From positions 135,460-199,459 of the forward strand of contig CAZQUE010000001.1 in NCBI GenBank assembly GCA_964596185.1: a stretch of DNA of 64,000 nt, in the 5' to 3' direction. Under the pieces are notes generated by a model. The model worked only from the letters and a program-made list of their open reading frames with translations. It was not told the DNA's origin and ran no database searches. The translations under genes and the position numbers were made by a program. Positions 2,501-57,584 of the stretch are shown here, one piece after another (within the stretch, counting starts at the first letter, position 1; every line of letters starts with the position of its first letter). This DNA comes from an uncultured bacterium. GTDB taxonomy: Bacteria > Muiribacteriota > Ozemobacteria > Ozemobacterales > Ozemobacteraceae.

Positions 2501-2609
2501 TCACCCCCGGTAGCCCGAAAAAGTTCGTTAATTGTTAGGGTTTTCTACATTATTGTCTGCAACCCTGTTTGACAATTTTTTTCCTTTTCTATATTCTTTA
2601 CCAATCCAA

Positions 2610-15139: not shown

Positions 15140-15244
15140 ATTGTTTCCCCTTACGAGTCGATAGAACTGGTTATCTATCATTTCGGCAGCTGACTTGATT
15201 TTCTGAACGATAATTTAACTATTTTTGAAAAAAAGTTTTTTCAA

Positions 15245-15940: not shown

Positions 15941-15966
15941 TTTGCTATCTCCAATCATATTCGCTA

Positions 15967-35600: not shown

Positions 35601-38600
35601 GCGGTGAGGTCAAGGGTTACAGGCCCAGCTGAAGTCGTGCTGGTGATGCGCAGGGTAAAACTTGCCGTAGATCCGATATTAACTGGGTTGTTATCCGATT
35701 CAAACCAGAGAATGTCGGCGAGAACCGGCGGTGAATTGTCGATGGCCAGTTCGGTGGTGAAGGTTGAAACGTAGTTTTGATCGTTGTCCCAAGCGGTGAC
35801 ACTGAACGATGCAAGTTCGCCATCCCAGGTGCCGGTGCCGATTTCGGCGATATAGGCATAGTTGCCGCCGCCGGTCGCGGTCAGGGCCTGTTTGTCGCTA
35901 CCACCGAGAGTGGTCAGGTCAATGGTCGGAGCAACGTTTTCATGATTCTTGACCAGAACCGAGAATCTGATGCGGTCGCCGATCGCCAGAGGCAGAGTGC
36001 CGGCCTGAACCGTGGCAGTTGCGCCGAGAATTTCCGGCAGTTGGCAGTCGACGGTGTAAGAGTTTGACTGAGCCAGCGTCGAGTTGCCGGCCTGGTCGAA
36101 CAGAACGGCGTTGAACTTGTGCCCAAGGGCTTCATAGGTCGTTGAAGCGGTCGGTATAACGTATGAATACGAGGCTGAGTCGCTTGCAAGCAGCTGATTT
36201 GACGGGCCGCCGATAGCTGAAAGATCTATGGTGCCCGTAGCGTGGTCGATTGGGAAAGTTGAATAAGGGATATTGAATGAAACAATTTTGTTGAAGTTGA
36301 TCGTGCCGATTGCCGAATCGGTTCTTCCGGCTTTGTAAACAGACGAGTCGACATCGAAACCGTTAACGGTGATTGGGTAGTTGTCTATAGGGATGTAAAT
36401 GATGGTTGAGGTTGCATTGTTGGCGTTATCGACGGCAGTAACGGTGAAGCCGGTGTTAACCAGGTTGATGGTGCCGGTTGGAACTCCGCCTGGCAGAACA
36501 TAATCAAACCAGCCAGGGAAAGAGCTCGAGGCAAGCATGTTGGTATTAGCCGGCTGACCAAGAGGCAGCATGTTGATAGTAATGCTGGTCAGTTCACCTG
36601 TAGCCTGACTTGCGCTGGCAATGTCAGCGTGGAACGACAGGTAATCCTGTATGCGCACGTAACCGTTGTCTATGTCAGTATTGACGTTGTGATACGAGTT
36701 ACTGGCGATTCCGGCAATGTATGGCGGTTCGTTATCGATCATCATGCTGTTGGTGTTAAGACTTACATAATGAGCATCATCTAAGTATGGATTGCCGATT
36801 GTGTCATTGACCGTGATCTTGAAAGAGGTGTCGGCGTCGCAGATAACCCCTGCAGTAATTGAATCTTTCAGGGTAAAGTTGGCACTGTATACTCCGGGGG
36901 AGGTTTCCGGCAGATTCACCATTGTCGGTATGGGATAGGTCATATCGATGGCAGAAAGATCTACCGAGACAGAACCAAGTTCGACTCCGGTAACATTGGC
37001 TGTAATGGTGAAGGTGTCACCGACGTTGATGATTGAATCTGAGTTGGTGAGAGTTGCACTGGTAATAACAGGTAGAGTGCTATCGATGCGAATCGGTGGA
37101 TTGGTGTCGTCTTTAAGCAGCTGAGTTCCGTCTTTGTCGAGAATTGTCACCGGGAAATTGTAATAGGTGTCGTCTTCAAGACTTCCCGCGGGAATTGTAT
37201 AAACGGCGCGATAATTGTCGAGGCCGGCTACCTTCGGCATGGCCAGGGCTGCGGGCCCGCCGATCGAGCTGAGATCTACCGTCGCATTCAGCGGGGTCAA
37301 CAGTGTAGAAGCAGTGAGGCTGGCGACGATTTCAAGTTTGCAGGTGGCGGTGGCGTAATCGTTCACCACAGGTGTGTTATCGGGCATTAAAACTCTGATG
37401 TTGAGTTCATAAGGTCGATTGAAAAATTTATAGGTTGGCGTGTAATCTGAAACCATGTGGGCAATTACTGCCGCCGTGGTCGTTGCAATCGTGTCATTTG
37501 CCGAAACTTTGAGAGTTTTGTTGCCTTCAACGACAAGACCGGCCGAAGCTACGCTGAGAGTCGGCAAGGTGAAGGTGCCGGAATAGGTGGTGCCGGACTG
37601 CAGGGTAAGGGTTGCCACGCTCCATTCAGAGGAAAAGCCAAGCGGAGTCAAATCGACGGTTACTGAACCAGCTTCTATCTGGGTTGCCTGGGCGGTAATG
37701 GTGAAATCCATGCCGGCAAGAATGGTTGGCTGGGCTGCAGTTATCGTGATTCCGGAAAGGGTCGGTTGAATATTGTCGATGCCGATTGCTGGTGTTGTGT
37801 CGCGTTGGAATATCTGCGTGCTGTCTTTGTCGAGAATGGTTACGGTGAAGTTGTGATAGAGGTTGTCTTCAAGTGCCGGTGTACCGGCGGGGATCGTGTA
37901 AACGGTGCGGTATTCATCGGTTGCCCCGACTCTAGGCATGGCCTGGGTTGGAGAACCACCGATCGCACTCAGATCGACCGAGGCAGAAAGCGGGGTGATC
38001 ATTCCCTGAACCGGAACAACTGCACTGATAACGATTTTGCACGAAGTCGTCGCTACGTCGTAGGGTGAGTCAGCGTCATCAGGGTAAAGAACATCGGCGG
38101 TCAGAGTGAAATTTCCGTTATAAAACTTGTGATCGGGAGTGTTGGCAGTAACGGTGTGCGCTACCAAACCGACGGTTGTGGTGGCGATGGTGTCGTGGGC
38201 AGTAATTACAAAGCTGCGCGGACCTTCGACGAGCGGCACGGTGAACGGTGCGATCGTGCTCGATGCTTGAAGAACGAAGGTGTTCGAGTAAAGATTGCCA
38301 GAAACGAAGTTAAGGGGTTCGAATGCGCCGAGGCCGATACTACTCAGGTCTATGGTCAGCGAACCTGCTTCGATGAGGTTGGCTTCGGCGGTAACAGTGA
38401 AGGACTCACCGCTGATGACCGTCGGCTGAACGCTGGTGACGGTTATGTTTCCGAAAGTTGGTTGTACATTGTCGACGGCGACGGTTGGTACGGCGTCCAC
38501 CAGAGCCAGACGGTCGCCATCTTTGTCGTTGATGGTGACGGTGAAGCTGTTATAGACTACGTCTTCGGTCGTGCCTGGCGGTACTTCGTAAATGCATCGG

Positions 38601-40579
38601 TATTGTGTCGTTGCACCGACTCGAGGCATGGCCAGAGTCGGCGGGCCGCCGATTGAGGAGAAATCTGCGGTCAAGGCGAGCGGGTCAACGAATCCCAGGG
38701 TCGGTACATCGGCGGTGACGACTATTTTACAGGTCGTTGTCGCGACATTGTAGGTCGAGGGGGTATTGTCAGGGAACCAGACTTCGGCGCTGACGGAGAT
38801 GTCTCCGTTGAAGAATTTCTTGGCCGGTGTGGTCGCGGTTACTGAATGAGCAATTACATTGGTGCCCGTAGAAATTACTGTGTCTCTAGCGGTAACGACG
38901 AAGGTTCTGAGACCTTCAACGTAAGGTACCCCCGTTCCCGAAGCGGGAAGGGTGAAAGTGCCTGAATACGTGTCACCGGTAATGTACACCAGTGGTGAAT
39001 AGGTTGCCAGGCCGATACTTGAAAGGTTTACCGTTACTGAGCCGGTTTCGATAAGCGTTGCGTCTGCGGTTATGGTAAAGGTTTGTCCGGTGGTAACCGT
39101 GGCGTCGGCGCTGGTTAAGGTGATATTGGTCAGAGTCGGTGAAATGTTGTCGATGTGCACGGCGGGTGTCGTCGCTTGTACAACTGTGTTGCCGGCCTGG
39201 TCGACGGCTGTTACGACGAAGTTAAGATTTTGATTGTCTTCGGTTGCGCCGGCGACAATAGGATAAGTGTATCGGAAAAAATAAGGAAAAAGCATACTCA
39301 TCGGCTGGGCTGCTGGCCCACCGATGGGCGTCAGATCGACATTCAGGGTTAGAGTGTCGGGTGGCACATTGATCGGAATTGATGCAACAATTTCGAGTTG
39401 GCAGGTTGTCGTGCCGACATCGTATTGAGAGTTTGCTCCAAAAGGTTGAAGAATATTGGCGTAAAGGATATCGAAAGCTGGAGTTTCAAGATCGACTCCA
39501 ATATAGCGCTCGACGGTGCGAACGTTGCCGATGTCATCCGTGAAGGTAAAAACTACAAGAAGTGCGCTGTTTTTGATATCAGCGTCACTGAGATTGACGT
39601 CGAGTTGCCAGAGTGCAGGGTTTCCTTCACCGGATGAGCTAATCAGAGGCATCGCTACATCTGCAGATATTACTGGATTGGCTCCGGCGGTAAGTCCTGG
39701 TATTCTCACTGTGACAGTTTCATTGTCGTACTGAGAAACTACTGCGCTTAAGCGAAGAACGTCGCCGGCCAGAGCAGTCGTGTTTCCAGAGAGAACGGTA
39801 ACAGTTGTCTGAGCTGCATCAACCTGAGGAGGGCGAGTATCTAGCATAAAATCGTTGGTCACAAAAACAAAGGCCGGGTGCAGAGGATCTTTGAGCGTAA
39901 TCTGAAGTGCGCCAGTATATTCCCGGTTGGTTAGATAAAGCTGAGTGCTTGCATCGAGCTCAAGTTCAAAATAAGGAGTAGGCAGCGCACCTATGTAAGG
40001 AACTTCTACCGCACCGCCTCCGCCGATCGGAATCAGGTTAACCCAGGCTTTTGTTCCACCATAAGGTGCAGGCTGGTATCTCGTATCTTCTATTCTGATA
40101 GTAATATCCTGGCCGTTGGGAACCAGCAGAGGTGAAACCTGCGGATTTTGTCCTGCGACCTGGCAGAGATCGACTAGCATGGTGTTGGTAATTTCGCTCG
40201 GCAAAGCTCCCCCAATCGTCTGGGCACGAACCGTAACACTGGTATTGGCAAAATTCAATGTATTGACATATTCATTGAGGACTACGTCTACCTGATATTG
40301 CCCGATAGGCTGATTTACCATGTTCATGACGTATTCGCCGAGTCCAAGATTCGAGCAGTCGGCAAAAGGTGGAATTAACCACGCTTCAGTTAAAGGGTTG
40401 GTATAGGTTGCCACTGCCGCAATGCGCACTGTATCGCCAAAGTTCGCATAGCCGTTGCCGTCAACATCGTTTTGCAGGGTGAGATAAACAGCATCGATTT
40501 CGATAACCGCTTCTACCGGTGCAGAAAATAAAAATATCGAAAAAATCAAAGCGAAGAACAGCAGACTTAATCGCTTCAT
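26696..40579 (-). CDS. Giant (4627 aa) secreted cadherin/Ig-like repeat surface protein with T9SS C-terminal sorting domain
   Basis: Signal peptide MKRLSLLFFALIFSIFLFSAPVEA. Four tandem ~215-aa repeats near the N-terminus, with many further modules. The C-terminal ~1000 aa is paralogous to the 3260-aa protein (DLTPPVL..SAFSNPANE.., ...ANGVYFARIEIKDPDNPSKKVKETFKIAILR). AAGGAG SD. Confidence 0.85.
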   Translation of the reverse strand: MKRLSLLFFALIFSIFLFSAPVEAVIEIDAVYLTLQNDVDGNGYANFGDTVRIAAVATYTNPLTEAWLIPPFADCSNLGLGEYVMNMVNQPIGQYQVDVVLNEYVNTLNFANTSVTVRAQTIGGALPSEITNTMLVDLCQVAGQNPQVSPLLVPNGQDITIRIEDTRYQPAPYGGTKAWVNLIPIGGGGAVEVPYIGALPTPYFELELDASTQLYLTNREYTGALQITLKDPLHPAFVFVTNDFMLDTRPPQVDAAQTTVTVLSGNTTALAGDVLRLSAVVSQYDNETVTVRIPGLTAGANPVISADVAMPLISSSGEGNPALWQLDVNLSDADIKNSALLVVFTFTDDIGNVRTVERYIGVDLETPAFDILYANILQPFGANSQYDVGTTTCQLEIVASIPINVPPDTLTLNVDLTPIGGPAAQPMSMLFPYFFRYTYPIVAGATEDNQNLNFVVTAVDQAGNTVVQATTPAVHIDNISPTLTNITLTSADATVTTGQTFTITADATLIETGSVTVNLSSIGLATYSPLVYITGDTYSGTFTLPASGTGVPYVEGLRTFVVTARDTVISTGTNVIAHSVTATTPAKKFFNGDISVSAEVWFPDNTPSTYNVATTTCKIVVTADVPTLGFVDPLALTADFSSIGGPPTLAMPRVGATTQYRCIYEVPPGTTEDVVYNSFTVTINDKDGDRLALVDAVPTVAVDNVQPTFGNITVTSVQPTVISGESFTVTAEANLIEAGSLTIDLSSIGLGAFEPLNFVSGNLYSNTFVLQASSTIAPFTVPLVEGPRSFVITAHDTIATTTVGLVAHTVTANTPDHKFYNGNFTLTADVLYPDDADSPYDVATTSCKIVISAVVPVQGMITPLSASVDLSAIGGSPTQAMPRVGATDEYRTVYTIPAGTPALEDNLYHNFTVTILDKDSTQIFQRDTTPAIGIDNIQPTLSGITITAAQPTILAGMDFTITAQATQIEAGSVTVDLTPLGFSSEWSVATLTLQSGTTYSGTFTLPTLSVASAGLVVEGNKTLKVSANDTIATTTAAVIAHMVSDYTPTYKFFNRPYELNIRVLMPDNTPVVNDYATATCKLEIVASLTASTLLTPLNATVDLSSIGGPAALAMPKVAGLDNYRAVYTIPAGSLEDDTYYNFPVTILDKDGTQLLKDDTNPPIRIDSTLPVITSATLTNSDSIINVGDTFTITANVTGVELGSVSVDLSAIDMTYPIPTMVNLPETSPGVYSANFTLKDSITAGVICDADTSFKITVNDTIGNPYLDDAHYVSLNTNSMMIDNEPPYIAGIASNSYHNVNTDIDNGYVRIQDYLSFHADIASASQATGELTSITINMLPLGQPANTNMLASSSFPGWFDYVLPGGVPTGTINLVNTGFTVTAVDNANNATSTIIYIPIDNYPITVNGFDVDSSVYKAGRTDSAIGTINFNKIVSFNIPYSTFPIDHATGTIDLSAIGGPSNQLLASDSASYSYVIPTASTTYEALGHKFNAVLFDQAGNSTLAQSNSYTVDCQLPEILGATATVQAGTLPLAIGDRIRFSVLVKNHENVAPTIDLTTLGGSDKQALTATGGGNYAYIAEIGTGTWDGELASFSVTAWDNDQNYVSTFTTELAIDNSPPVLADILWFESDNNPVNIGSTASFTLRITSTTSAGPVTLDLTAIGYSAAETMDFDGIDTYTWGQAPVLYTQAADQEYTDYVFKARVYDSNNNLAFAESAQFNIDCQPISFSADGIEISQTNGDNPVANVANINDVLTVYASAAAYLDAVSIQATIGSGTVDFATATMVYNSAMNRHEATFVVSAPGVSNWGINNGNTLYYKLTAEDDAANISTMVQGNSTFTVRNERPTMVATTDLNPNYDLNTAYNLGTSTVGDLLHVDAYLSGDTTMNRAWIDFSDCGSGTVEMAVAASSATTIAGIPVSSLPPINGETREIYVIGQDEGGNKDFATFTYTIDNVAPQIVSAEFDGTTIRVNLSEVYENASIDMSKWTLVGSASAPLGTPAYLNFAANVPDTTNLYSFDITLDAAQQITVGNWASTPVYLQITNSGASPLTDLFANELPTAAFYPVTITDSSWRELPEVSQVAMTQNWPAATVIDIYFNKEVEPTTLSASSGVLLYKNLTYDYSSVDYADGYVFTPSDTISWPDALNNHVRITLNASGTDWIARKIGTANTLKFAIRDGMSFVKDNLQRSVKAISSQSPMDAADNRPTPAFNFDVVVPELDMASRSLKLTASDRLLLFTNDFTRANSTDPLVNTPVPSLSRRVTGFHNQIILHEYDSGASLVLQLEDLQLPTDNLYASTTISLKLTTTDVDNVINLFQSSATPDWRLQINAGAFTNLWGTNNTAYLPSGNPGPLNMIYPVGYNAATVAACSMSDKPPVNQKAINELAFEVEIFPPNLDGAPVPIQTQAQPAAQIKRQDNDAVICNGSFISYSNRTVDGLERTVARFTNAAAFPAGLQRVPVYVEVTNIRDIFDTAYVVTASQAYDLNLKSDSAPGGFTDTASVTIELDTQKPSVVQVIPGDYIGRLPYGSEFRVEFSEAMDPNVIPTLRLATGTTTMSFTFSYWIASETAVFTNNTAFTEATANGVWTWEVTGGRDEATNSFDTTFTDPVEVRTYAPEVSSGNVSVRTVQPTVDVTATLIDQPWSRDLGDATFQIVYSTDTVQHWPHVLEVYDAANTRYGQVAISVPVSRVATATFTNADFDPLFDPGVSGPTDYKIRIIDSAMNQTDQVATLTYDNLAPDVTSITMTGIGSETTNISYYNPMIGAFNLNATTGISSDELKLAIYSVTDNATTTYDMTQTSLRNYNVSTGNMLAEGAYILSIIDRAGNIGTGLAQRGLIVDKSNPTVLSVVPDTLIGNSPADGTTFTVIFSEPMDAGIEPTLTLATAGTTITMNFAGWADANLASTAYYTNAIEIETSMPSGFYNYDIVGGKDLAGNILIAPSAGTFKVEVMTDGPFAQISHLTDQSAVYGVADGIKTNYAFNGVGSATINITYPAGPFNTPHRLNVYDKDDVLVSSSGAVLNNINEQLIFPNDFNLTDPLYTYTDQTYSFKLIDDEDNVSGSALASSLKYDATAPDVATITISGLGTFSTGAYYYSPNQGDVQFTVETNNDETLKFVFLSPAVSPVATQAIDLETTDARTHVATFGSTLVDDVYIIGAVDTAGNIGNNATLLIVDSDAPTVSSATPLIAGGHAAGTGVFVIEFDEAMNRSVTPTANIASTSTTIPLTFTSWIDATHCQFTNTNDLTLYNTGSYSYQITGARDLAGNENENPLIGSFTIDLYTQSPLVTAVLYSQQPMVSADIRMNEPFSLNVAPGVATLTLYYNEAPTQIPHMLWIYDNDDNLTASITFTPDVGNKIASITVDANFFDNIDATPGDEPGNNGPLSYKFKLVDQIGNISATNSTIITYDALAPVIDSAAIGPVSDGSNDPLYYNEALYGPLYLKFGSTATDSLRLVIAGNNATNTYSLNLDDAADEYSASLTTSQASALATGTYTITAVDLAGNFATGASATTVLIIDRQAPTVTGVVSLNGEPLTSEPIGGATFTVTFNESMKASATPLLSIATGSTVIGCAFDSWLDAPAYTQAQFVTTSEITPDLPQGEYEYRVTGWDLTGNKLDNAVVGTVVVQSRGPVIATIFAESMQATTASGTEILRDTPFSFAVAPNAATLTVTLSQDPDALPINLHFMQSGVTVASYPLTYDAVSKSATFTWSLTNGPVPTIYPTTYQIKLVDDSGDFSLESYDWTVDASAPVALDLPTVTRGAVATDSVYFNPSRQSYLNVSFNSVDTDALRMRIRGANSTDTYALNAAGANTWAGNFDGRYSRGTDPKPLMPDGIYSLDLVDQAGNVGLLASGDPILYNIIIDTVEPAVSTYSTYVNGNPVTAYSPAAGNLEIRVESTDTLSESGIFWVDVLNSSNIKIKQLPLTDSGAYFSAFWDGTNSAGSTVLDGTYSFRATDYAGNPANISISIFALTTPFKVVGAVQISSSTAKLVFNHEVDANLAGAAITAAGLTISNIQKIEAQAVSFSVTPNFAHQATYEFQATPGTISSIYGAGIAAPNNTAPMLADGQGPVLSSVNFSGLSGQQEFKVVFDESYKPATAGDIGKYSLTGPSGALAIAAATTQADTKTVLLTAASNLIENADYQISVTGIEDVYGNLSPSPNSINFKGRDLTPPVLEVSAFSNPANESDIIVVVVSNEDLKAPPVLQIAQSNAPVITTNMQQGANSRSFMIGVHLSPSYPGNGTLVATAQDLAGNQGSGNSTFAVAYLSANKVASVKSADEKLVAEFSTGSLKDNAMFKIMGHRLEAGNETSTSIRTALQQQARLALGLRASQTQASAIDQTELKPVSMAYEVAIAAEKVKEGFNVFVEIPQATSTTGLGLFYQTNDQWKFLTAKPTRGSSFAAKAASTQLFAILRDVKGPEVALAADIDLNEPFRTPRPEFRGKITDAGSGLDITTVTAHIDSGPAQNVTVDNSGNFTFKPMADLTGGWHDLVIRAKDNTGNDSAMTAVRFEVVVPLQITQIAQYPNPARVRTFIRISANRGDVSEDLVKVKIYDVAGHRVATLDGIKPVNEKWGINARYLYDIPWDLRNASGKLVANGVYFARIEIKDPDNPSKKVKETFKIAILR
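36750..39200 (-). repeat. Intragenic tandem repeats (~650-690 bp, 3.5 units) inside the 4627-aa gene
   Basis: Repeat boundaries recur near 39170, 38520, 37810 and 37130 (for example ...gtcgacggcgacggttggtac... / ...gtcgatgccgattgctggtgt...). Protein units start (I/V)DN(I/V)xPT(L/F) and are ~40-50% identical to each other. Confidence 0.6.
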
Positions 40580-44148: not shown

Positions 44149-44481
44149 TTGCTTTTATCTTCCTCTGAGTAGATGTGCTCCCTTTGAACTTCTGAAGCCA
44201 TTAGTTGATAACAGAGGCGCGGGTAGATTGTCAATATTGCGATAGGTGCCGTCAAGGTCGATATTGAACTGGTTAGTGCCGGTATTCATTTCTTTTCCTC
44301 CTGAAATACTCTTACCATCTTATATCGGTAAATCAGCAGAAAAACTTCAGCCTTATCAGTTTGGGTAAAACTCTGAATTATGGGTTTCCTATATAAAAGC
44401 TCATTCAATTATTCCCCTGTTTTGTCCAAGCCTCCCGCAAAGCCTCAAAGCCTCAAAGACACAAAGAATAGATCGGGCTCT

Positions 44482-45306
44482 TTATTTGTTCTTTTGTCGC
44501 TGGGGCTTCATGGCTGCAAGCAGCTTAAAACCGTCTTTGAGCTGTGGAAAATGTGGGCTGAGCAGCTTATACATTTTTCTGGCGACAAACAGGCCTAAGA
44601 TGCTGAAAAATGCTGATATGCCGGCCGGCAGCCACAAAGGAATGCTGAATTGCCGGTCGAAATCGGTAAACAAAACGATTTCTTTCGGCTGCCCCGCCGA
44701 TAGGTCAGATTCTTCAAGCCGAATCGCGACAATGGTGCGGTCGTCGCCATCATAGCGAATTGCCGCCTCGTTCCAGAAAAACTGCAGTTTTTCCGGAGAA
44801 AAGCGATGCTGAAGGTCTTCAAGTAAATTTTTCAGATAATTGTCTTGCAGGGCTGCGCTGATGCCTTCGGAAACCATGATGAAATGGTCGTCGAGGCAAA
44901 AGTCCAGGCTTGTGCTTTTTATGGCCGGCATGGTTAAGTGGGGTTTTCCGGTAAACTTTTTATTGGCAGCAATCAGACAATTGCCGTGCCATAAAAGGTT
45001 GGCTTTGCCTCTATGGATCCAGATGGCGGCAAAGCCATCGATGCCGGCCGGGTATTCGGCATTGGTTTCGGCTAATGCGGCCGCAGCAAACTCGGCCAGA
45101 CGCTCTTGCCCTTCTTCAGCTGAGAAGAGAAATGAGTTTTCGAGCAGTGACGTGGCAAGGAGCTGCAGCAGAAGACGGGCTGCAGAACTGCCGTCGGCAC
45201 CCTTTCCGTCGGCAAGCAGGCCCAGACGATTTTTGCGGTCGAGATGAACGGCATCCTGGTTGTGCTCGCGAATTGTACCAGCCGCTGTCAGCGACGAAAT
45301 CAACAT
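44482..45306 (-). CDS. PP2C-family Ser/Thr phosphatase-like protein with C-terminal TM anchor
   Basis: GTIREHNQDAV (compare GxxRxxNED), LADGKGADGSSAA (compare DGMGGHxxG), DGDDRTIVAIRL (compare DNxTVIVV), and a C-terminal hydrophobic helix. The start codon is 3 nt after the upstream ATPase stop. Confidence 0.55.
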   Translation of the reverse strand: MLISSLTAAGTIREHNQDAVHLDRKNRLGLLADGKGADGSSAARLLLQLLATSLLENSFLFSAEEGQERLAEFAAAALAETNAEYPAGIDGFAAIWIHRGKANLLWHGNCLIAANKKFTGKPHLTMPAIKSTSLDFCLDDHFIMVSEGISAALQDNYLKNLLEDLQHRFSPEKLQFFWNEAAIRYDGDDRTIVAIRLEESDLSAGQPKEIVLFTDFDRQFSIPLWLPAGISAFFSILGLFVARKMYKLLSPHFPQLKDGFKLLAAMKPQRQKNK

Positions 45307-45309
45307 CGG

Positions 45310-48300
45310 TCAGATTCCAGCCGGGGCCTTATGATCGAGCAGGCGGTTATGGGTGTTGACCAGCTGTTGAACCTTTTCAACCACGTCGAGCAGACCTTTT
45401 GATCGCAATCCGCCGGTGAGTGCGTCGACGAATACCAGTTTGACTTTCGGGTGGGTCGGCTCAACATAGCCGGTGCTGCGATCATCTCCGAGAACCCAGT
45501 AAGTCAGTCGGTCGCAATATGGCACCCAATGGGAAAAATCGCTGAAATCAGAATAAGCATTGAGCTTGGGAATGACGATCTGCGGCACATATTCGATCTG
45601 ATTTGCGGCATTGATATAGATGCGTTCGTTTTCAGGAACGATCGGAGCTACTTTCAGATTCGGCAGGGTGACTTTGAAGCGGGCTTTGCCGAAATGATTC
45701 AGGGCGATTTTTTCGGCAAGTGCTTCCCATTTGACGTTAATGTCACGGATTTCCTGAGAATAATTGAACAGCGCTTTCTGAAAAATCTCATTGGTTTTGA
45801 GCTCTTCGATGGCATTTTCGAGAGCAAGAAAATGAGAGTGGTTGAAAAGCGTGCCGAGCATGAAGCCGAGGCCATTGTTGAGGAAATGGCGGCGGGAAAT
45901 GTGCTGCGCGGCTTTTGCTTCATCGATATGCAGGCGGTCGTGAATCAGCCATGTGGTAGCCTGCCTTGCAGTTTCGAGGGCATCTGGTGCCTTCCAGAGG
46001 TCAGACTGCTCATTGAACTGCCAGGCTTTGAATTTTTGCGGGTAAGCGTTTTCGATGACCTGGTAGAGATTCTGGTTGAAAAGGTCGAGCAATTTTGACA
46101 GGCCGTTCATGTGGAATTCCCGAATGGAAATACGCTTGGGGATTTCTTCTATCGGTATGCCGAGCCTTTCTTCAATAAGCCAGATCGTAGCTTTCTGGGC
46201 CGTGTCGAAACGGTCTTCCTGGAACCATATAAGTGGCTCTTCCTCAATGAATTGCCATTGTTTGAAGACATTTGGGAAAACGGCATTAACCAGCTTAAAG
46301 CATGAGTCATCGAAGAGTTCGAGCAGTTTGCCCAGGCCATTGTCTTTAAAAATGTGCCGGTTCAGCATAGCCGGAAGATCGCCGCGACTACAGCCAAGTT
46401 TCTCTGACATCAGCCATTCTAGAGCTTCGCGAGCGCAATAGTTTTTGTCATTATTTTCGAGCCAGTTTTCAATTTCGTTGAACTGCCAGGGTTTGAATTG
46501 GCCAGGCAGAACCATTTCGATGAGCTTGAAGCGGCTTTGTCCGGACCAGAGCCAGACCTGTTCGAGGCCTGCATTGACAAGCAGCTTTTCATTGAATATT
46601 TCCGGTAGCTCTTCCGGTTTTTGCAAACGGTTTTTAATCTTTTCGAGCAGGGCTTTAACGGCTATGGCCGACCAGGTTGCCGCGATTTCATCATTGGCAA
46701 AGATAAAGTCGGGAAGATAGCCGCCTTTTTCCTGGATTAGATGAATGATGTCGACGATATCGGTTTCGCTCATTTCTTCGGGGGCCGCGCCGAAAAAGTT
46801 TTTGAATCCTTCGCTTGTTCTGGTTAGACCCTGCATTTGCAGCAGTTCTCTAATCTGCAGAACGGGCAGATGCATTCTTTCGGCGAGCTTTTCGTCACTG
46901 AAAAACAGATATTCTTTTTCGAGGGAAGCAATGATGGTCTTTATTACCGGATCATTGGGATCGATAACCGGGGCACTCCGCTGGGCGCGAATCGGCTCTG
47001 ACTGTGGCATGGTTGAGCCCATTGCCGCAGATTGGGGCATGGCCACCGGCACTACCATGCTGGGATTGCCGGTAAAAACTCCCGGAAGACTGATTCTTTT
47101 TTCTTCTTCATCGGAAGGAGTTACATAAACGACTTCTTCAAGAGTCGATTCTCCGACGATGGCCCGTTCAATGGCCATTTCTCTCAGAGTTCTCATGCCT
47201 TCCAGGCGTGCGATACGTTTTATTGCCATTTCGGTGCCGCCTTCCATGATAATGTCCTTGAGAGAGGCGGTCATTACCATGGTTTCGTAGACGCCGATTC
47301 GGCCAAAGGTGCCGGTTTGATTGCATTCTTTGCAGCCGGCGCCATGATAGAACTTGTTGCCGATCAGCTTGCCTGGTGAAAGATTGAGTCGCTGAATGAT
47401 ACTGTGGCTCGGTTTGTATTCGGTTTTGCAGCTTGGGCAGATGCGGTGCAGCAGTTTCTGGGCCACTACTGCTCTGACGGCAGCTGTGACCAGATAAGCC
47501 GGAACACCCATGTTGATCAATCGGTTGATGCTGGCCGGGGCATTGTTTGTGTGAAGGGTCGACAAAACCTTGTGGCCGGTAAGAGAGGCTCTGAAGGCAA
47601 TTTCAGCCGTTTCCAGATCGCGGACTTCGCCGACGAGAATGATGTCGGGATCCTGGCGCAGGGCAGAACGCAGGCCGCTGGCAAAATCAAGGCCGATTTT
47701 GTCGTTTATCTGAACCTGGGTGATGCCGTTGATTCGGTATTCTACCGGGTTTTCAATGGTGAAAATATTGATTTCGGTGCTGTTGAAATACTTCAGCATG
47801 CCGAACAGGGTTGTGGTTTTACCCGCGCCGGTCGGTCCGGTAACCAGAATCAGACCGTATGGTTCGTCGAGAGCGGCTTTGAGTCGAGACAGATCATCGT
47901 CGAAAAAGCCAAGATTGTCGAGGTCGTATTTTGCTTCACGCTGCAAAAGACGCAGAACCGCTTTTTCACCAAGTAAGCTGGGTACGGTGCTGACACGGAA
48001 GTCGATTTCCTTATCCTGCATTCTGACCTTGAGACGTCCGTCCTGTGGCAGTCTTCGCTCGGCAATGTCAAGATGTGAAAGAATCTTGATGCGACTGATC
48101 AACGGTGCGAGAAGGCTTTTGGGCCCGGTCATCGCGTCGTGCAGAATGCCATCAACGCGGAACCTGACCAGAAGAATGTCTTCGCGCGGTTCGACATGAA
48201 TGTCAGATGCTCTTTTTAGGATTGCCTGTTTAAAAATTGCATTTAAAAACTGAACGACCGCTCCCTGTTCCGAGGTTTTTCTGACAACTTCAACACCAGC

Positions 48301-48798
48301 TTCGCCCGGTTCACTGACTTCTGCTTTGCCGTCTTCACCACCGACAGAAAAGCCTTCCCAGGAGTAAAGCTGGCGGATTGCCAGTTCTATCTGATTTTTG
48401 GGGGCGATCAATACTTCAAGTTTGCATTGAGTAAGAAAGGCGATCATATCGGTGGCCATGATGTCGAAAGGATCGGCCATGGCAACGGTGAGGCGGTTTC
48501 CTTCCTTTTTCATCGGAACCATTTTGTATTGTTTGGCCTGATATTCAGGGATAAGCGAAAGAATCTTGGCGTCGACCTTGATGTTGGTCAGATCGATGAC
48601 CGATACCCCAAGAAATTCAGCCCAGAGGTCGAGAATTTGCTTCTCAGACATGAAACCAAGTCTGACAATGATATTTTCAAGGCGTTCGAGCGTCTGGGCC
48701 TGGATGTTTTTCGCCTTTTCAAGCTGATCTTCAGACAACAGACCCTTTTGCAGCATCAGGCTTTCAACTGTTTGTTTGGTTCCTTGAATGTTGTTCAT
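45310..48798 (-). CDS. GspE/PilB-family secretion ATPase with long C-terminal repeat-containing extension (1162 aa)
   Basis: The N-terminal ~570 aa have a GSPII_E N-domain, Walker A GPTGAGKTTT, and a CPSCK...CKECNQ zinc finger. A ~590-aa extension follows, containing three ~85-aa repeats (FKPWQFNE.../FKQWQFIEE.../FKAWQFNEQ...). GGAGGA SD. Confidence 0.8.
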   Translation of the reverse strand: MNNIQGTKQTVESLMLQKGLLSEDQLEKAKNIQAQTLERLENIIVRLGFMSEKQILDLWAEFLGVSVIDLTNIKVDAKILSLIPEYQAKQYKMVPMKKEGNRLTVAMADPFDIMATDMIAFLTQCKLEVLIAPKNQIELAIRQLYSWEGFSVGGEDGKAEVSEPGEAGVEVVRKTSEQGAVVQFLNAIFKQAILKRASDIHVEPREDILLVRFRVDGILHDAMTGPKSLLAPLISRIKILSHLDIAERRLPQDGRLKVRMQDKEIDFRVSTVPSLLGEKAVLRLLQREAKYDLDNLGFFDDDLSRLKAALDEPYGLILVTGPTGAGKTTTLFGMLKYFNSTEINIFTIENPVEYRINGITQVQINDKIGLDFASGLRSALRQDPDIILVGEVRDLETAEIAFRASLTGHKVLSTLHTNNAPASINRLINMGVPAYLVTAAVRAVVAQKLLHRICPSCKTEYKPSHSIIQRLNLSPGKLIGNKFYHGAGCKECNQTGTFGRIGVYETMVMTASLKDIIMEGGTEMAIKRIARLEGMRTLREMAIERAIVGESTLEEVVYVTPSDEEEKRISLPGVFTGNPSMVVPVAMPQSAAMGSTMPQSEPIRAQRSAPVIDPNDPVIKTIIASLEKEYLFFSDEKLAERMHLPVLQIRELLQMQGLTRTSEGFKNFFGAAPEEMSETDIVDIIHLIQEKGGYLPDFIFANDEIAATWSAIAVKALLEKIKNRLQKPEELPEIFNEKLLVNAGLEQVWLWSGQSRFKLIEMVLPGQFKPWQFNEIENWLENNDKNYCAREALEWLMSEKLGCSRGDLPAMLNRHIFKDNGLGKLLELFDDSCFKLVNAVFPNVFKQWQFIEEEPLIWFQEDRFDTAQKATIWLIEERLGIPIEEIPKRISIREFHMNGLSKLLDLFNQNLYQVIENAYPQKFKAWQFNEQSDLWKAPDALETARQATTWLIHDRLHIDEAKAAQHISRRHFLNNGLGFMLGTLFNHSHFLALENAIEELKTNEIFQKALFNYSQEIRDINVKWEALAEKIALNHFGKARFKVTLPNLKVAPIVPENERIYINAANQIEYVPQIVIPKLNAYSDFSDFSHWVPYCDRLTYWVLGDDRSTGYVEPTHPKVKLVFVDALTGGLRSKGLLDVVEKVQQLVNTHNRLLDHKAPAGI

Positions 48799-48815: not shown

Positions 48816-49568
48816 TTATTTAACCTCGATGCGGTATGATCTGCGCTCGATCGATTCTTCGAATTTCATGGTATCTCGGCGGGCAAAAAGGTGAAAATTC
48901 ACATGTCCGGTGCGCTTGGCCTTGAAAATAAGGACAAGTTTGTCGTCATGTTTGCGCAAATCATGAATTGAAATGCGGTTGTCGTTGTATTCATACATTA
49001 TTTGCCAGTCGAGTTCCTGTATTCCTGAATAGCGGGGCAGTTCTATTTCGAAAAAACTGTTGAGCCCGACTTTGATTGTTTCGGTTTTCTTGATTTCCGG
49101 TGGTAGCAGACGAACTGAAAATGTGTTGGAAACCAGATGCCGTGGACTGGTCATAACCATGGCATGAATGCGGTAAACTCCCTGCGGCAACGGACTGTTC
49201 AGTCGATCTCGCGATTGCCATGACATTTGGTAGGTGATGGGCTGACCAACCCGCAGTGGTATCGAGTGGGGCGCTTCCTCCCAGCGTAGGCCCTGAGACC
49301 ATCGATATATCTGGGTGCCGTTATGGAAAACCGCGTAATCCCAATGCTGACCAGTCGGATAAAAAATATCGACGGTTTTGTCAGTGCGATTGCGAATCTG
49401 AATGGTAAAAGTGGCAGTTTCACCGGCGATGATCTCCGGTTTCTCCGGCCAGGCTTTTATTTCAAGATCGGCAGGGTTGACGAATTCCCATTTTCGCAAT
49501 TCAGCCTTCGCCTGAGTGGCAAAGATAACGAAAAACAAAAGAATAAAAACTGTGAATTTTTTCTTCAT
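48816..49568 (-). CDS. Secreted protein, possible BsuPI/proteinase-inhibitor-like beta-sandwich domain
   Basis: Signal peptide MKKKFTVFILLFFVIFATQAKA (start trimmed to ATG 49568). TFTIQIRNRTDKTVDIFYPTGQHWDYAVF...YRWSQG resembles BsuPI-type domains, but that assignment is tentative. Confidence 0.45.
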   Translation of the reverse strand: MKKKFTVFILLFFVIFATQAKAELRKWEFVNPADLEIKAWPEKPEIIAGETATFTIQIRNRTDKTVDIFYPTGQHWDYAVFHNGTQIYRWSQGLRWEEAPHSIPLRVGQPITYQMSWQSRDRLNSPLPQGVYRIHAMVMTSPRHLVSNTFSVRLLPPEIKKTETIKVGLNSFFEIELPRYSGIQELDWQIMYEYNDNRISIHDLRKHDDKLVLIFKAKRTGHVNFHLFARRDTMKFEESIERRSYRIEVK

Positions 49569-49628
49569 GCCTGAATGATACAACACCTGAACCTGTCTGA
49601 AAAGAAATTGTCTGCAACTTTGCAATTT

Positions 49629-52243: not shown

Positions 52244-53095
52244 TTATTCAACAAACATTGATTTTCCACTGGGTTTGAGGAAGACGGTGCGTTCATCGAT
52301 TCGAGTTTCTTTGAACAGGGGCGGAAGGTCGCGGGTGCTCTCTGTTGAGCCTATCAACAGGTAGCCGTCATCATTGAGGTGACGTCTGATTTTCACAAAC
52401 AGGCTCTCGCGATCCCTTGCCGAAAAGTAAATCGCTACATTGCGACAGAAAATAAGATCATAACGCTCGGGAAGCAAAAAGGGCTTTTGTAGCTCGATGC
52501 GATCGAAGATCATCGATTCTTTGAGTGAATCATGAATATGATACTGCTCAGAACGGGCAATGAAATACTTTTTAAGAAAGTCCGGCGGCACCCCGCGTTC
52601 AACTTCGAATTTGCTGTATGACCCAGTTTTGGCAGCCAGCAATGCCTGATGAGAAATGTCGGTAGCGGTAATCTGGTATTCTTTGGGTGCAGCGCCCAGA
52701 TCTTTCAAAATCATGGCGATGCTGTAGGCTTCCTGGCCGGTTGCGCAGGCCGCGCTCCAGATTTTCAAGGCCCTGGGTTGAGGAAAGCTGCGTACCCGAT
52801 TAAGGAGCTCTGGTAAAATTTTACTCTTCAATGCATCAAAAGGACTCGAGTCTCTGAAAAAAGAGGTTTCTTTTATGGTGATCTGATCGATGATTTCATC
52901 GCGAAGTTTTCTCTGACCAGGTTCTCGTGCCAGAAAATACAGATGACTGAAGGTATTGCAGCGGTATCTCTGCAATAGTGATGTCAATCGCTCTCTTATC
53001 AGATATTCTTTCTCTTCTGAAAGCGCTATTCCGGTTAAATCAAAGATAAATTGAATCCAGAGGGCTAGTTCATGATATTCCAACCTTTGAACCAT
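52244..53095 (-). CDS. cheR: Chemotaxis protein methyltransferase CheR
   Basis: KETSFFRD and WSAACATGQEAYSIAMIL are the SAM-binding motif context of CheR. Confidence 0.9.
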   Translation of the reverse strand: MVQRLEYHELALWIQFIFDLTGIALSEEKEYLIRERLTSLLQRYRCNTFSHLYFLAREPGQRKLRDEIIDQITIKETSFFRDSSPFDALKSKILPELLNRVRSFPQPRALKIWSAACATGQEAYSIAMILKDLGAAPKEYQITATDISHQALLAAKTGSYSKFEVERGVPPDFLKKYFIARSEQYHIHDSLKESMIFDRIELQKPFLLPERYDLIFCRNVAIYFSARDRESLFVKIRRHLNDDGYLLIGSTESTRDLPPLFKETRIDERTVFLKPSGKSMFVE

Positions 53096-53129
53096 CTCTA
53101 TTCACCTCTTCTTCTGAAAACCTCGCTGC

Positions 53130-54263
53130 TCAACCAATTTGATAGATCTTCTGCAGAGAAAGTCTTTCAAGTTTGTTTCTAATTTCCTTGAGAGAGAGAA
53201 TCTCATTGGCGAGTTTGGCTTCAACTACCACTTTGGGCATTCCATAAACGACGCATGATTTCTCGTCCTGGGCAACCACGTAGCCATTGTTGTCTCTGAT
53301 CATTCTGGCGCCGGCCAGCCCGTCCATGCCCATTCCTGTCATGATGAAAAAAGCTATTTTGCCGGAAAAATTTTTAACCAACGATTCAATCAAATAATCA
53401 ATAGAAGGTTTGCAATTGTTCACCGGAGGGTCGTCCGTCAGCTTGAATCGGTAATTGCCGTCTGAGCATTTTTGCAGAGCCAGATGTCTGCCGCCTTTGG
53501 CAATGTAGATGCACTCAGAATCCATTGGCATTTGGTCACAGACCTCTGCAACATCGAGACCCGATCTTTCTTTGATGCTTTGGGCAAGTGCTTCAGAAAA
53601 GTTTTCCGGAATATGTTGAACGATGATTATCGGGATCTTGAGCTTGATGTGGAAGTCTGAAAACAATTCCATCAGTGCCGGAGGGCCTCCGGTGGAGATG
53701 CCTATTACGACAAGATCCGGGGTGAATCTGGCTCCGGCCGGTACTGGTTGCGGAAACGCCTGATCGGTTTTAGCCTGCTCCAGCTGTGGAGATTCGATCT
53801 TCTTTTGTGTCGAACCGGAATTTTTAGCAAGTTCGATACGGAATTTGCGACGGTTGATAAAGGCATTTATTGCAGACTGAAGATCTGAACGTAATAGTTG
53901 GCGGGTTTCTTCCATGGTGTGGTTGCCCTGTGGCTTGGCAACGAATTCGAAAGCGCCGGCAGCGAGCGCCTTGATGGCACCGCGGCACATACTGGGTGAA
54001 GCGCCACTGACGATGATTATTCCGATTTCGATCTTTTGTCGCTTCAATTCTTCTATCAGCTCAAGGCCGTTCATTTCAGGCATGTCAAGATCAAGAAGAA
54101 GCAGATCCGGTTTCAGGTTGAGTATTTTTTGCAGGGCAATTTTTCCGTTCGGTGCCTGACCCAGGATCTGCAGGTTTTTCTCTGTAGACAACAGATCAAT
54201 AAGTATCTTCCTGAAAACCAGCGAATCATCAACGATCAAAGTTCTTACCGGAGTTGGCTGCAT
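53130..54263 (-). CDS. cheB: Chemotaxis response regulator protein-glutamate methylesterase CheB
   Basis: N-terminal receiver (LIVDDSLVFRKIL...DLDMP) followed by the C-terminal methylesterase GISTGGPPAL. Confidence 0.9.
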   Translation of the reverse strand: MQPTPVRTLIVDDSLVFRKILIDLLSTEKNLQILGQAPNGKIALQKILNLKPDLLLLDLDMPEMNGLELIEELKRQKIEIGIIIVSGASPSMCRGAIKALAAGAFEFVAKPQGNHTMEETRQLLRSDLQSAINAFINRRKFRIELAKNSGSTQKKIESPQLEQAKTDQAFPQPVPAGARFTPDLVVIGISTGGPPALMELFSDFHIKLKIPIIIVQHIPENFSEALAQSIKERSGLDVAEVCDQMPMDSECIYIAKGGRHLALQKCSDGNYRFKLTDDPPVNNCKPSIDYLIESLVKNFSGKIAFFIMTGMGMDGLAGARMIRDNNGYVVAQDEKSCVVYGMPKVVVEAKLANEILSLKEIRNKLERLSLQKIYQIG

Positions 54264-54758
54264 TTAGTTTTCACCTTGATTGAGATCGCCTTCATCGTAT
54301 TTTTCGAGCACTTGCTCGAGCTTCAAAAGACCGATCATATTTCCATCGAGAAAAAAGAAACCGGCCAGCGATTGCTGCATGGCAGGCTGTAGATTTTCCG
54401 GATTGGGAACAAGATTCTCGTCGGAAAAGGGAAAGATTCCTGTGAGGGATTCAACCAGGAAGCCAACCAGCTCCGAATTTGTTTCGACAACCAGTATTCG
54501 TGACTCCGGACCGATTATCTGGGGTTGCAGTTCAAGTTTAACGGCCGGGTCAATCAATGCCAGAACCCGGCCACGCAGGTTGAAAAGACCTTTTACATAA
54601 GCAGCAGCGTGATGAACCGGTCTGATCTCCGGGACTGCCAGGACTTCCTGGATGTGACTGGTCGGTATGCCGAAGGTATTGCCGCAGAATTCGCAGACCA
54701 GTACCAGGGCATTGTCTTCATCGAGGAGGCTTTCAGCCAGATTCATCAGTTCGGTCAT
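54264..54758 (-). CDS. cheW: Chemotaxis coupling protein CheW
   Basis: A single CheW-like domain of 164 aa. Directly abuts cheB with no gap, and sits 1 nt from the MCP stop. Confidence 0.8.
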   Translation of the reverse strand: MTELMNLAESLLDEDNALVLVCEFCGNTFGIPTSHIQEVLAVPEIRPVHHAAAYVKGLFNLRGRVLALIDPAVKLELQPQIIGPESRILVVETNSELVGFLVESLTGIFPFSDENLVPNPENLQPAMQQSLAGFFFLDGNMIGLLKLEQVLEKYDEGDLNQGEN

Positions 54759-54759
54759 A

Positions 54760-57564
54760 TCAGATTTTGAACCTTGTTAACATATTGTTGAGCTGTTCAG
54801 AAAGTCTTGAAAGCTCTCTGGCGCTTGAAAGCACCTGCTGGCTCGAAGAAGAAATTTCACCCGAAGCGGTATTTACCCGTGCGACGTCTTTCGATGCTTC
54901 TTTTGTGCCGATGGCTATTTCTGCCATGCGTGAATTAACATCTCTGATGCTTTGTGAGGTGTCGGCAATATTACCAGAGATACTTTTGGTAACACTGGCC
55001 TGTTGCTCGATGCTGCTGGCAATCGCAGCAATGATGTCGCTGACTTCACGAATGATTTTGCTGATGTTTTCAATGTCGCCAATCGCGTTCACCGTAACTT
55101 CTTGAATTCCGGCAATTTTTTTGCGGATATCGATGGTGGCGATTGAAGTTTGCTGGGCCAGTTCTTTAACTTCATTGGCGACGACCGCAAAGCCCTTTCC
55201 GGCTGCCCCGGCTCGGGCTGCCTCGATTGTCGCATTCAGTGCGAGCAGGTTTGTTTGCGAAGAAATGCTGGTAATGGTTTCGGTTACCTGACCGATTTCC
55301 TGGGCCGACTTTTCCATTGCCTTGATGATATCTGAAACGCCACTGGCTTGTTGACTGGCATTACTGGCAATTCTGCGTGCTTTTTCTGAATTAGCGGCAA
55401 TTTCAGAGATGGTAACGCTCATTTCTTCGGTGGCCGTAGCAACTGTCGTCAGATTCATCGTCGTTTGCTCCATGCTCGAAGCCACCGAAACAGCATTTGA
55501 ACTCATTTCTTCGACAGCCGAAGCGACGAGTGAAGAGCGATCGTTTGATTCGCGAGAATTGGTTGCAAGTTGTTCAGAAATTGCAGAAAGCTCAGTTGAT
55601 GAAGATGCGAGGGTCTGAGCGCTCTGATTAAGCTCGCGGAACATTTGTGAGAGCTGTTTGACCATTGTTGCGACTGCCTGCATTTGCTGGTCATTTTCAG
55701 AACGCTGGGTTACTTCAACCATCAAATCGCCTTCGGCAACCTTTTGAGCAACGCTGGTTACCCCAAGAAGCGATTGAATCAGCTGATTCAGGCAATCTTT
55801 CAAGACATTGAACTCGCCTCGATATTCATCCTGAACCGGTGCAGGAATTTCGCCCCGGCTAAGTTTCCAGAGATTTTTTGAGACCATTACAATCGGGTCT
55901 TCAAAGGCTTCGAGAATGTTGTTCATCTCTTCGACAATTCGTGCAAATTCACCACGATTGCGGCTGGAATCACAACGCACGGAGAGATTTCCCTCAAGGG
56001 CCGCCTTCGTCAGGGTGTGACTGTCGCTGATTAGGTTGTTAAGCGAAGTTCGCACCATCTGAAGATTTTTGCTGATTGTCTGGAAATTTTCAAAAATCGG
56101 TTGGGTTGCCTTGTTCGGTGTGGCAATGTCCCAGTTCCAGTTTAAGTCTCCTTCAGCCAGTTTGGCGAGACACTCTGCAAGTTTGTTGAGTTCGTTGCTT
56201 TGATAACTAAACACTTCTGCAGAGGTTCGGGTTAGCGATTCGACCTCGTTCCGGCCTTCTTCAGCCTTTTTCAAAAGAAAGTGATGGCAGTTTTCAGGGC
56301 GATTCAGCTTGTTATAGATTGCGACAGCCATGCCTTCACAGTTGCCGTATCCGCAAGAATTACAGTTGAAGAAGTCATCTTCAGAAAACTTGCCCATTTG
56401 TTGATAAATATGGTCAAGTTCACTTTTTGCGGGCATTTTAATAATGTTACTCTGGCTGCGATTTTCATAGCTTCGCGCATATAGACGGGGTTTCCAGTAA
56501 CGATTTAGCAGCTTTTCAATGCTTTTGTGGGTTCTACGGGCTGACATCGGGCCCCAGCGCTTGTAGCGCTTTTGCATTTCCCGATTTCTTTCTTCAACGA
56601 GTCTTTCGACTTCATCGGGTGAGCTGTGTTTGATGTCGGTACCGGTGCCGGCGTTGCAACCCAGCTCACAATTGAGACAATCGACGAGCAATGGTGCCTT
56701 TTTCTCGAGGCGAAGCCGGTTGAGATCTTTCAAATAATCGTAAATGATGTGTGGCCCTTCAATTTTGCGGGTAACTTCCTTTACATCGGCATTCCAGCGT
56801 TCCGCGGTTCTGAGAAGGCCGCCTGGAGTTGAAAAAAGAACAGCTCTTTCGGCGGGCGGGTTGTCGTAATCGACCTCCGGGAAAGTGGTCAGATGAATGT
56901 TGTTCTTGGCCATCCAGGCTTTGAGATTGGACATGGTCACATTGTAATCGCCGAAACCGGTCTGATAAAACTCTCGCTTTTTGGCAACGCAGGGCGATAA
57001 GACGGCGACCTTGTGGGCTGCAAACCTTGGCCAGTATTCCTTGATCATTTTTATCGTATGCAGCATTGGGCTGTCGGCAGGCGCGAATGAAGGCAGCAGG
57101 TCGGGCTGGTAGATTTCCGCATAATTTACCAGAGCCGGGCATGGTTGGGCAATTACCAGGTCAGGCTCATTGCTCTTTATGTGCTCAAGGTAAGATTTGA
57201 TGGTCAGTTCAGCGCCAAAACTGACGTCAAAGATACCGGCGACACCAGTTGATTTCAGCCAGCCGTTGAGGCGCAGATATTGATTGGGGAAAGATACTGC
57301 AACGGCGGGTGCCACAACCGCGATTATGGGCTCGCGACGGTTGAGCGCTTCAATGAAAGCCGCAGTGTCATCGACGGGTCTTCTGGCATCGTGGGTGCAG
57401 GTTTTCAAACATTGGCCACAGCCAATGCACATGTCTGAGTTTATCTCTACTGAATCTCCAGAGGCATCATTGCAGAATTTAACCGGGCATGCGGCGATAC
57501 ACGCATGACAATTTACACAGTTGTCTTTTACGACTTCGATTACTTGTGGTAGAGAGCGTAACAT
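54760..57564 (-). CDS. Soluble methyl-accepting chemotaxis protein with N-terminal 2x[4Fe-4S] ferredoxin plus [FeFe]-hydrogenase-like sensor domain
   Basis: Two CxxCxxCxxxCP ferredoxin motifs ([23 protein letters not shown]) are followed by a region with H-cluster-like motifs ([31 protein letters not shown]). The C-terminal part is a canonical MCP signalling domain (...[31 protein letters not shown]...). No TM helices. GGAGGA SD. Confidence 0.85.
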
Positions 57565-57584
57565 TGGGCTATCCTCCAGAAATT

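Follow-up and report, generated by a model that had tools for sequence, protein, structure and literature searches.

A 64,000-nucleotide stretch of DNA from an uncultured member of the Ozemobacteraceae (contig CAZQUE010000001.1, forward-strand positions 135,460 to 199,459; hereafter the window) encodes on its reverse strand a protein in which a PilB/GspE-type assembly ATPase (aa 1-560) runs on into a 600-residue C-terminal extension. The extension is composed, in order, of a linker, a helical helix-turn-helix-like (HTH-like) domain, one degenerate and three clear repeats, and a tail of ∼160 residues, and the features are collected in Table 1. The open reading frame (ORF), 45310..48798(-), encodes the 1162 residues given in an earlier note on this DNA. 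We put at about an even chance the reading that this protein is an active orphan PilB paralog bearing six tethered endonuclease-type arms that serve as a docking or regulatory device.

The ATPase part places the protein in the PilB/GspE superfamily. Residues 13-560 match PilB/GspE, with Pfam T2SSE (PF00437) scoring 434.5 bits against a cut-off of 24.9 over aa 176-556 and Pfam MshEN scoring 68.3 bits. The earlier note had placed a complete GspE/PilB in the first ∼570 residues, and this is borne out for aa 1-560, in which the N-terminal domain, Walker A, Walker B, and the tetracysteine are intact. The Walker B region reads DPDIILVGEVRD, and a His box is also present in the ATPase core. Both Walker motifs were found in 33 of 33 orthologs and the strict His-box pattern in 28 of the 33, while the four Cys residues of the tetracysteine are invariant in an alignment of four sequences. 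The protein is thus like PilB, GspE, and MshE (PF00437; TIGR02538, TIGR02533) in possessing full GSPII/MshEN-type N-terminal, N2, and C-terminal ATPase domains with Walker A/B, His box, and tetracysteine, and unlike them in its long C-terminal arm, its sub-equivalog scores, and its degenerate cyclic diguanylate (c-di-GMP) motifs. It scores 595.8 bits with the PilB equivalog TIGR02538 (cut-off 675.65) and 540.7 bits with the GspE equivalog TIGR02533 (cut-off 630.25). In contrast, the canonical 610-residue PilB of the window (10886..12718) passes TIGR02538 with 710.8 bits. Because the long ATPase falls below a PilB threshold that the window's own PilB exceeds, and its ATPase core is 43% identical to that of the canonical protein, it is assigned from sequence as a diverged third PilB paralog, in agreement with the earlier claim of a third PilB/GspE ATPase besides pilB and pilT (9791..10852). 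The c-di-GMP motif, sought as two tandem 24-residue copies of RLGxx(L/V/I)2xxG(L/V/I)2xxxxLxxxLxxQ, was not found in its exact MshEN form. The two copies retain 6/11 and 8/11 of the fixed positions, as compared to 11/11 and 10/11 in the canonical PilB, and the score with NCBIfam NF053729, 36.9 bits, falls short of the cut-off of 38.

The extension begins with a segment rich in Pro, Gln, Ala, Met, and Ser (aa 561-612), which is probably a flexible tether, followed by the HTH-like domain and the repeats. Three ∼85-residue repeats marked by FK(P/Q/A)WQF had been proposed at ∼45700-46560. Three such repeats are indeed present (R1-R3), starting with FKPWQF at aa 768, FKQWQF at aa 845, and FKAWQF at aa 923, and each contains an NGL motif. 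Their pairwise local alignments lie z = 18-24 above shuffled sequences, and the observed score was reached by none of 300 shuffles. The period is however 77-78 residues, not ∼85, and the measured bounds are 45799..46497. A degenerate unit (R0) precedes the three and closes with the PGxFKPWQF boundary common to the repeats. No direct match of Pfam DUF4046 (PF13255) to the extension or to single repeats was obtained up to an E-value of 10, and precomputed DUF4046 matches are “faint” only. Arrays of the repeat unit were found by homolog search in P0012-P0015 (phmmer, E 2e-71 to 5e-32). Two of these proteins exceed the Pfam DUF4046 cut-off of 22.8 bits (P0014, 25.4 bits; P0015, 36.4 bits), and comparison of the repeat profile with the P0012-P0015 units by hhalign gave a probability of 99.8% (E 5e-29) over 76 of 77 columns. 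On the strength of these three results, the window repeats are classed as diverged units of DUF4046, a family of uncharacterized function. R1-R3 share the FKPW(E/Q)F, WL(I/M)EE(K/R)L, NGL, and AYP motifs of DUF4046 (PF13255) proteins. In contrast to free DUF4046 arrays, the units of the window are acidic, score below the Pfam threshold, and are fused to an ATPase.

Little else in the databases resembles the extension. Pfam and NCBIfam returned nothing usable for the extension, for single repeats, or for the HTH-like segment; neither the extension nor the tail alignment found a match in sequence and profile searches of the PDB; and a Foldseek comparison of a model of the whole 553-residue arm with the PDB gave nothing below E 0.3. 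No paper mentioning DUF4046 or PF13255 was retrieved from the searched literature. The architecture is accordingly as nonstandard as the earlier note supposed, with an extension that was not found to correspond to any well-characterized domain of described function.

The last part of the protein had been described as a unique tail of ∼200 residues. It comprises instead ∼160 residues (1001-1162), has rare relatives, and adopts a PD-(D/E)xK restriction endonuclease-like fold, with the alpha-beta-beta-beta-alpha-beta core that defines this fold; AF1548, the EcoRII catalytic domain, and the endonuclease domain of the R2 retrotransposon exemplify the fold. When scored against 1.84 billion representative proteins, the tail profile gave eight matches in total, its own family included, among them a divergent PilB-DUF4046-tail fusion (P0033, 1105 aa) and a fragment of it. 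P0035-P0038 match the tail with E 6e-5 to 3e-4, and the matched region contains a PD...(E/D)xK pattern of the form LPNGxxPD(I/L) ... (I/V)(E/D)xK ... YC(D/E)xLxYW. One tail relative carries NUMOD1 and I-HmuI-type NUMOD modules, matching crAss-like phage homing endonucleases, and another carries a WYL domain. Among tail homologs, Pfam gave only a weak MmcB-like match (E 0.23) in one member, with no family covering the domain, and a homolog search with a mixed tail alignment returned only fragments of the tail family. Two further candidates were set aside: the C-terminal domain of the array protein P0012, for which hhalign gave a probability of 0.1%, and P0034 (3142 aa), a protein with many SEA domains in which eight stretches match the tail profile, treated as a probable repeat or compositional match.

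Unlike PD-(D/E)xK nucleases, the tail has both acidic catalytic residues replaced in all orthologs. In the full-length orthologs, the position of P1052 is Pro in 33/33, that of I1076 is Ile or Val in 33/33, and that of K1078 is Lys or Arg in 33/33; the corresponding residues of P0033 are D, S, and A. Because both acidic metal-binding positions are lost, the tail is without the classical active site and would not be expected to cleave DNA in the classical way. It is better classed as a fold relative and probable descendant of the PD-(D/E)xK nucleases than as a nuclease itself. These substitutions bear directly on the possibility of an active nuclease-ATPase, for example of defense or restriction-like character, in which the ATPase powers a C-terminal endonuclease. 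Such an enzyme would be consistent with the fold of the tail, with the D...E/DxK motifs of its relatives, and with the WYL domain of one relative, which is of a kind met in defense contexts. It is nevertheless very improbable, as the catalytic D and E/D are absent from all 33 orthologs, PADLOC gave no meaningful defense-system match, the arm has no match in phage records, and the gene resides phylum-wide in a conserved chromosomal core beside hisS rather than in a variable island. A role of the arm as an enzyme of any kind is considered less likely. The parts of the arm, together with tail relatives bearing NUMOD modules or a WYL domain, argue for an endonuclease-type origin, and the combination of DUF4046 repeats and nuclease-like domain looks like a domesticated, possibly homing endonuclease-like module that was inactivated and recruited.

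The fusion is conserved across a phylum. With each GTDB species represented by one genome, scanning recovered the tail from 41 genomes, of which nearly all are labeled Riflebacteria or Rifleibacteriota (including Rifleibacterium, Ozemobacter, and Ozemobacteraceae), and the search for homologs of the same architecture, which the earlier note had suggested, showed that 41 species-level genomes carry the fusion. Ortholog lengths are 1159-1178 aa, with one of 1131 aa, and identities to the window protein are 60-98%. Every locus uncut by a contig end or gap contains a single ORF of ∼1160-1180 aa with Walker A, and all such loci except one contain three FKxWxF motifs; the few shorter ORFs are truncated at a contig end or, in the case of L040, at an N-gap. 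P0033 represents a second, divergent fusion lineage with four DUF4046 units and no HTH-like domain. Mean identity to the window residue is 0.86 for the ATPase core and 0.81 for the tail, as compared to 0.36 for the linker, and the fusion is 84-86% identical in genomes in which the PP2C-like proteins encoded next to it (see below) are only 38-45% identical. This pattern points to strong purifying selection on the motor motifs and on each folded domain of the arm. Because selection on motor and arm is interrupted by a variable linker, an active hexamer with tethered arms is the arrangement that we favor. Contigs with a Rifleibacteriota-type locus that are labeled Desulfovermiculus, Methylomirabilis, Erysipelotrichia, or Avigastranaerophilus (P0005; L010, L021, L038, L039) are probably mis-binned, and the Desulfovermiculus label of P0005 was rejected as the identity of the organism.

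That the fusion arose through chimeric assembly or fusion of gene calls, or is a pseudogene in decay, is so improbable as to be negligible. The gene is broken in two higher-GC relatives, by frameshifts in L001 (1..3102) and by a run of N in L002 (7022..10535), as such an artifact might predict, but these breaks coincide with a scaffold gap and probable assembly errors. The artifact is already refuted by the single ORF, which is intact and of conserved length in the window and in nearly every one of the 41 independent species genomes, is 60-98% identical, and shows strong selection on the folded domains; an assembly chimera was accordingly rejected. In L001 and L002, gene callers report the broken gene as two, one for an ATPase piece and one for a separate “DUF4046” protein (P0009, P0004), and these two proteins are assembly artifacts rather than stand-alone arms.

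If the protein is an active orphan motor, the gene product would be a catalytically competent, hexamer-forming PilB/GspE-type assembly ATPase. Each subunit would carry, after a variable linker of ∼50 residues, an arm made of the HTH-like domain, four DUF4046 units (one degenerate), and the PD-(D/E)xK-fold domain, and in the hexamer six arms would project from the motor on its cytoplasmic side. There, an arm could recruit or sense a conserved cytoplasmic partner by docking and thereby couple or gate the motor, which would itself presumably serve a filament machine. Protein docking is preferred over generic DNA binding because all 33 orthologs have an acidic helical arm (pI 4.8-5.5, net charge -13 to -23), unlike the free DUF4046 arrays, which are basic (pI 8.5-9.3).

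The same charges argue against a motor coupled to nucleic acid. In that reading, the arm would bind DNA or RNA but not cleave it, and the PilB-type motor would be tethered to the nucleic acid or act on it, as might happen in positioning at the nucleoid or when a type IV filament machine takes up or exports DNA. The HTH-like and endonuclease-like folds fit nucleic-acid binding equally well. However, in addition to the acidic helical arm, the tail is near neutral across its family (median net +1), the surroundings showed neither competence genes (comEC, comEA, dprA) nor others for DNA handling, and DNA binding by DUF4046 is undemonstrated in the searched literature. We regard this alternative as doubtful, though it deserves to be kept in view. 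A more specific form, in which a PilB-class motor is coupled to DNA or RNA through six domesticated endonuclease-derived arms for uptake, export, or nucleoid-anchored assembly, as a signature of Rifleibacteriota, is rated slightly lower again. If true, a PilB-class ATPase would be connected to DNA or RNA in a manner not known before, and DUF4046 would gain a first function.

The genes around the ATPase are those for a DUF1848 protein, a BsuPI-like protein, a PP2C-like protein, and hisS. The BsuPI-like gene, whose product would be secreted, is the only neighbor conserved phylum-wide, and tblastn placed it immediately upstream of the ATPase gene wherever a locus extends that far. Translation probably begins at the ATG at 49568 (MKKKFTVF...AKA/EL), 17 nt separate the end of the gene from the start of the ATPase gene, and the signal peptide is of the classical Sec type (MKKKFTVFILLFFVIFATQAKA/EL), not a prepilin leader. 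Consensus scans detected a weak promoter-like site just upstream of this ATG and no strong terminator until after hisS, a picture that is suggestive only.

Downstream, as the earlier note had recorded, 3 nt lie between the ATPase stop codon (45310-45312) and the start of the PP2C-like gene, which encodes a C-terminal hydrophobic helix, read from its sequence as IPLWLPAGISAFFSILGLFVA. The protein has no Pfam match, and its score with NCBIfam Stp1 (23 bits) is far from the cut-off of 230. Its tentative assignment to PP2C comes from a profile of 16 homologs, which matches tPphA (E 3.6e-10, aa 1-158) and PppA (E 7e-6) in the PDB. NQD, ADG, SEG, and DGDDR are invariant motifs, as are D18, D33, and D186-189, and an invariant Glu (E147, in SEG) stands where the third metal-site Asp would be. 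The protein thus resembles tPphA, PstP, and Stp1 in its RxxNQD, aDGxG, and DGDDR metal-site motifs and differs from bacterial PP2C in the missing flap region (a gap of ∼36 residues in the alignment), in the Glu for the third Asp, and in the C-terminal anchor. Residues ∼223-274 form a hydrophobic helix followed by a strongly basic 30-residue tail, and no signal peptide is present. The membrane topology is ambiguous because the positive-inside rule conflicts with the expected cytoplasmic location of the catalytic domain, and the helix may be a tail anchor or an in-plane anchor.

The partnership of ATPase and PP2C-like protein implied by this adjacency is not general. The PP2C-like gene is downstream in approximately half of 41 loci and is linked in one clade only; in L030, L033, and L048 its place is taken by genes that are unrelated or on the opposite strand, or directly by hisS. 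In L001 it is followed by genes for a FecR protein and a CHASE2-cyclase. The P0033 locus (L049 7080..14531) has a Fic gene upstream and, downstream, a gene of the STAS (anti-sigma antagonist) type and then one for a large TPR protein. Since one clade encodes a membrane PP2C-like protein at this place and a distant lineage encodes a STAS protein, Ser/Thr phosphorylation and control of a partner-switching type may act on the motor in some lineages.

The neighborhood also contains nothing of a filament machine. PilC/GspF (T2SSF), pilin, PilMNO, and secretin genes were all absent within ∼8 kb in the annotated relative loci, so that the check proposed earlier, for a platform protein near other copies, turned up no platform or pilin genes near any copy. 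The long ATPase of the window likewise differs from PilB in not lying beside platform, pilin, or pilT genes. This absence would be expected of a signaling NTPase, an ATP-dependent switch or hub in a PP2C or STAS partner-switching circuit that no longer drives a machine. A PP2C-like gene 3 nt downstream in one clade, a STAS gene directly downstream in the P0033 lineage, scores below the PilB and GspE equivalog thresholds, and degenerate c-di-GMP motifs are all consistent with such a switch. Nevertheless, the motor motifs, the N-terminal GSPII-type domain, and the zinc-binding Cys residues are conserved as in a working assembly ATPase, and the PP2C-like gene is absent from approximately half of the genomes, including the three named above. 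Orphan PilB/GspE genes that use a distant platform are, moreover, common. We consider the signaling NTPase unlikely.

Several observations weigh against the orphan motor with docking arms. No partner, substrate, or platform protein has been found for the ATPase, the docking role is reached by elimination, and, as noted, the folds of the arm would suit nucleic acid as well and genes for filament components are missing from the annotated loci. The PP2C and STAS neighbors are lineage-specific, and the regulatory link may be incidental. The connection of the tail to motif-bearing relatives consists of matches at the level of E 1e-4 in a single profile search, and a non-canonical active site in the tail may exist as a formal possibility.

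Few bacterial ATPases have been studied as thoroughly as the PilB/GspE motors, which are known to vary mainly at the N-terminus. The PilB-family motor PilF of Thermus thermophilus, for instance, is enlarged by extra N-terminal GSPII-type domains. The window protein is reminiscent of PilF in extending well past ∼570 residues, but its addition is C-terminal and of unrelated make-up, consisting of DUF4046 units and a nuclease-like fold. The searched literature yielded no account of a C-terminal module of this kind on a PilB-type ATPase, and searches for Riflebacteria together with pili, or for a secretion ATPase together with a restriction endonuclease fold, gave nothing relevant. A large C-terminal module that is present phylum-wide, under selection matching that on the ATPase core, implies an extra, essential-looking interaction of the motor that is not known from any model system. 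It would also exemplify a selfish endonuclease-type module that was inactivated and then recruited into a cellular machine, and it gives a first starting point for work on the function of DUF4046 and of a nuclease-like family that is unclassified. As Rifleibacteriota are uncultured, the value of the analysis lies in its hypotheses, and both the arm and the ATPase can be expressed for tests in vitro.

Table 1. Features of the long ATPase gene and its immediate neighbors (window coordinates).
Feature	Position	Strand	Basis or remark
Whole ORF, PilB-type ATPase with C-terminal arm	45310..48798	(-)	1162 aa + stop
N-terminal GSPII/MshEN-type domain, aa 1-150, degenerate c-di-GMP motifs	48349..48798	(-)	Pfam MshEN
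ATPase core, aa 176-560	47119..48273	(-)	Pfam T2SSE and motifs
Walker A GPTGAGKT, aa 321-328	47815..47838	(-)	motif location
Tetracysteine CPSC (aa 454)...CKEC (aa 489), aa 454-492	47323..47439	(-)	motif location
P/Q/A/M/S-rich linker, aa 561-612	46963..47118	(-)	lowest conservation of all segments
Helical HTH-like domain, aa 613-690, acidic, pI 4.6	46729..46962	(-)	
Degenerate DUF4046-like unit R0, aa ∼691-767	46498..46728	(-)	local alignment to R1/R2: z 5.1/3.1
Three DUF4046-type repeats, R1 aa 768-844, R2 aa 845-922, R3 aa 923-1000	45799..46497	(-)	local alignment and hhalign
Tail with PD-(D/E)xK restriction endonuclease-like fold, aa 1001-1162, P1052/I1076/K1078	45313..45798	(-)	
BsuPI-like protein upstream of the ATPase, Sec-type signal peptide	48816..49625	(-)	Pfam BsuPI 49.6 bits
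PP2C-like protein, 274 aa, C-terminal hydrophobic anchor	44482..45306	(-)	profile match to solved PP2C

Other features of the window were recorded in passing. A conserved ORF for 44 aa at 44155..44289 (-) precedes hisS by 6-9 nt. It shows 70-82% identity between genomes (counterparts at L004 8853-8987, L005 9193-9327, and L007 8848-8982), ends in an invariant HLLRGR, and could encode a small protein or a leader peptide; Rfam gave no matches in the window, this region included. Tandem paralogous ORFs of ∼750 aa at 2532..4832 (+) and 4850..7093 (+) contain archaeal-type AglB oligosaccharyltransferase domains (PF18079 AglB_L1, PF22627 AglB_core-like) in a bacterial genome. A methyl-accepting chemotaxis protein (MCP) encoded at 54760..57564 (-), within a che cluster (CheA, CheW, CheB, CheR) at 52244..60206, combines an N-terminal region like the large subunit of Fe-only hydrogenase and 4Fe-4S domains with subsequent HAMP and MCP signaling domains. 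Downstream of hisS lie two giant ORFs, at 15967..25749 (-) (3260 aa) and 26696..40579 (-) (4627 aa). The corresponding relative position in L001 and L003/L004 is occupied by a giant Big_5/Big_13 protein, and the giant ORFs are followed at 14129..15958 by TPR and PorV/FadL-like outer-membrane genes.

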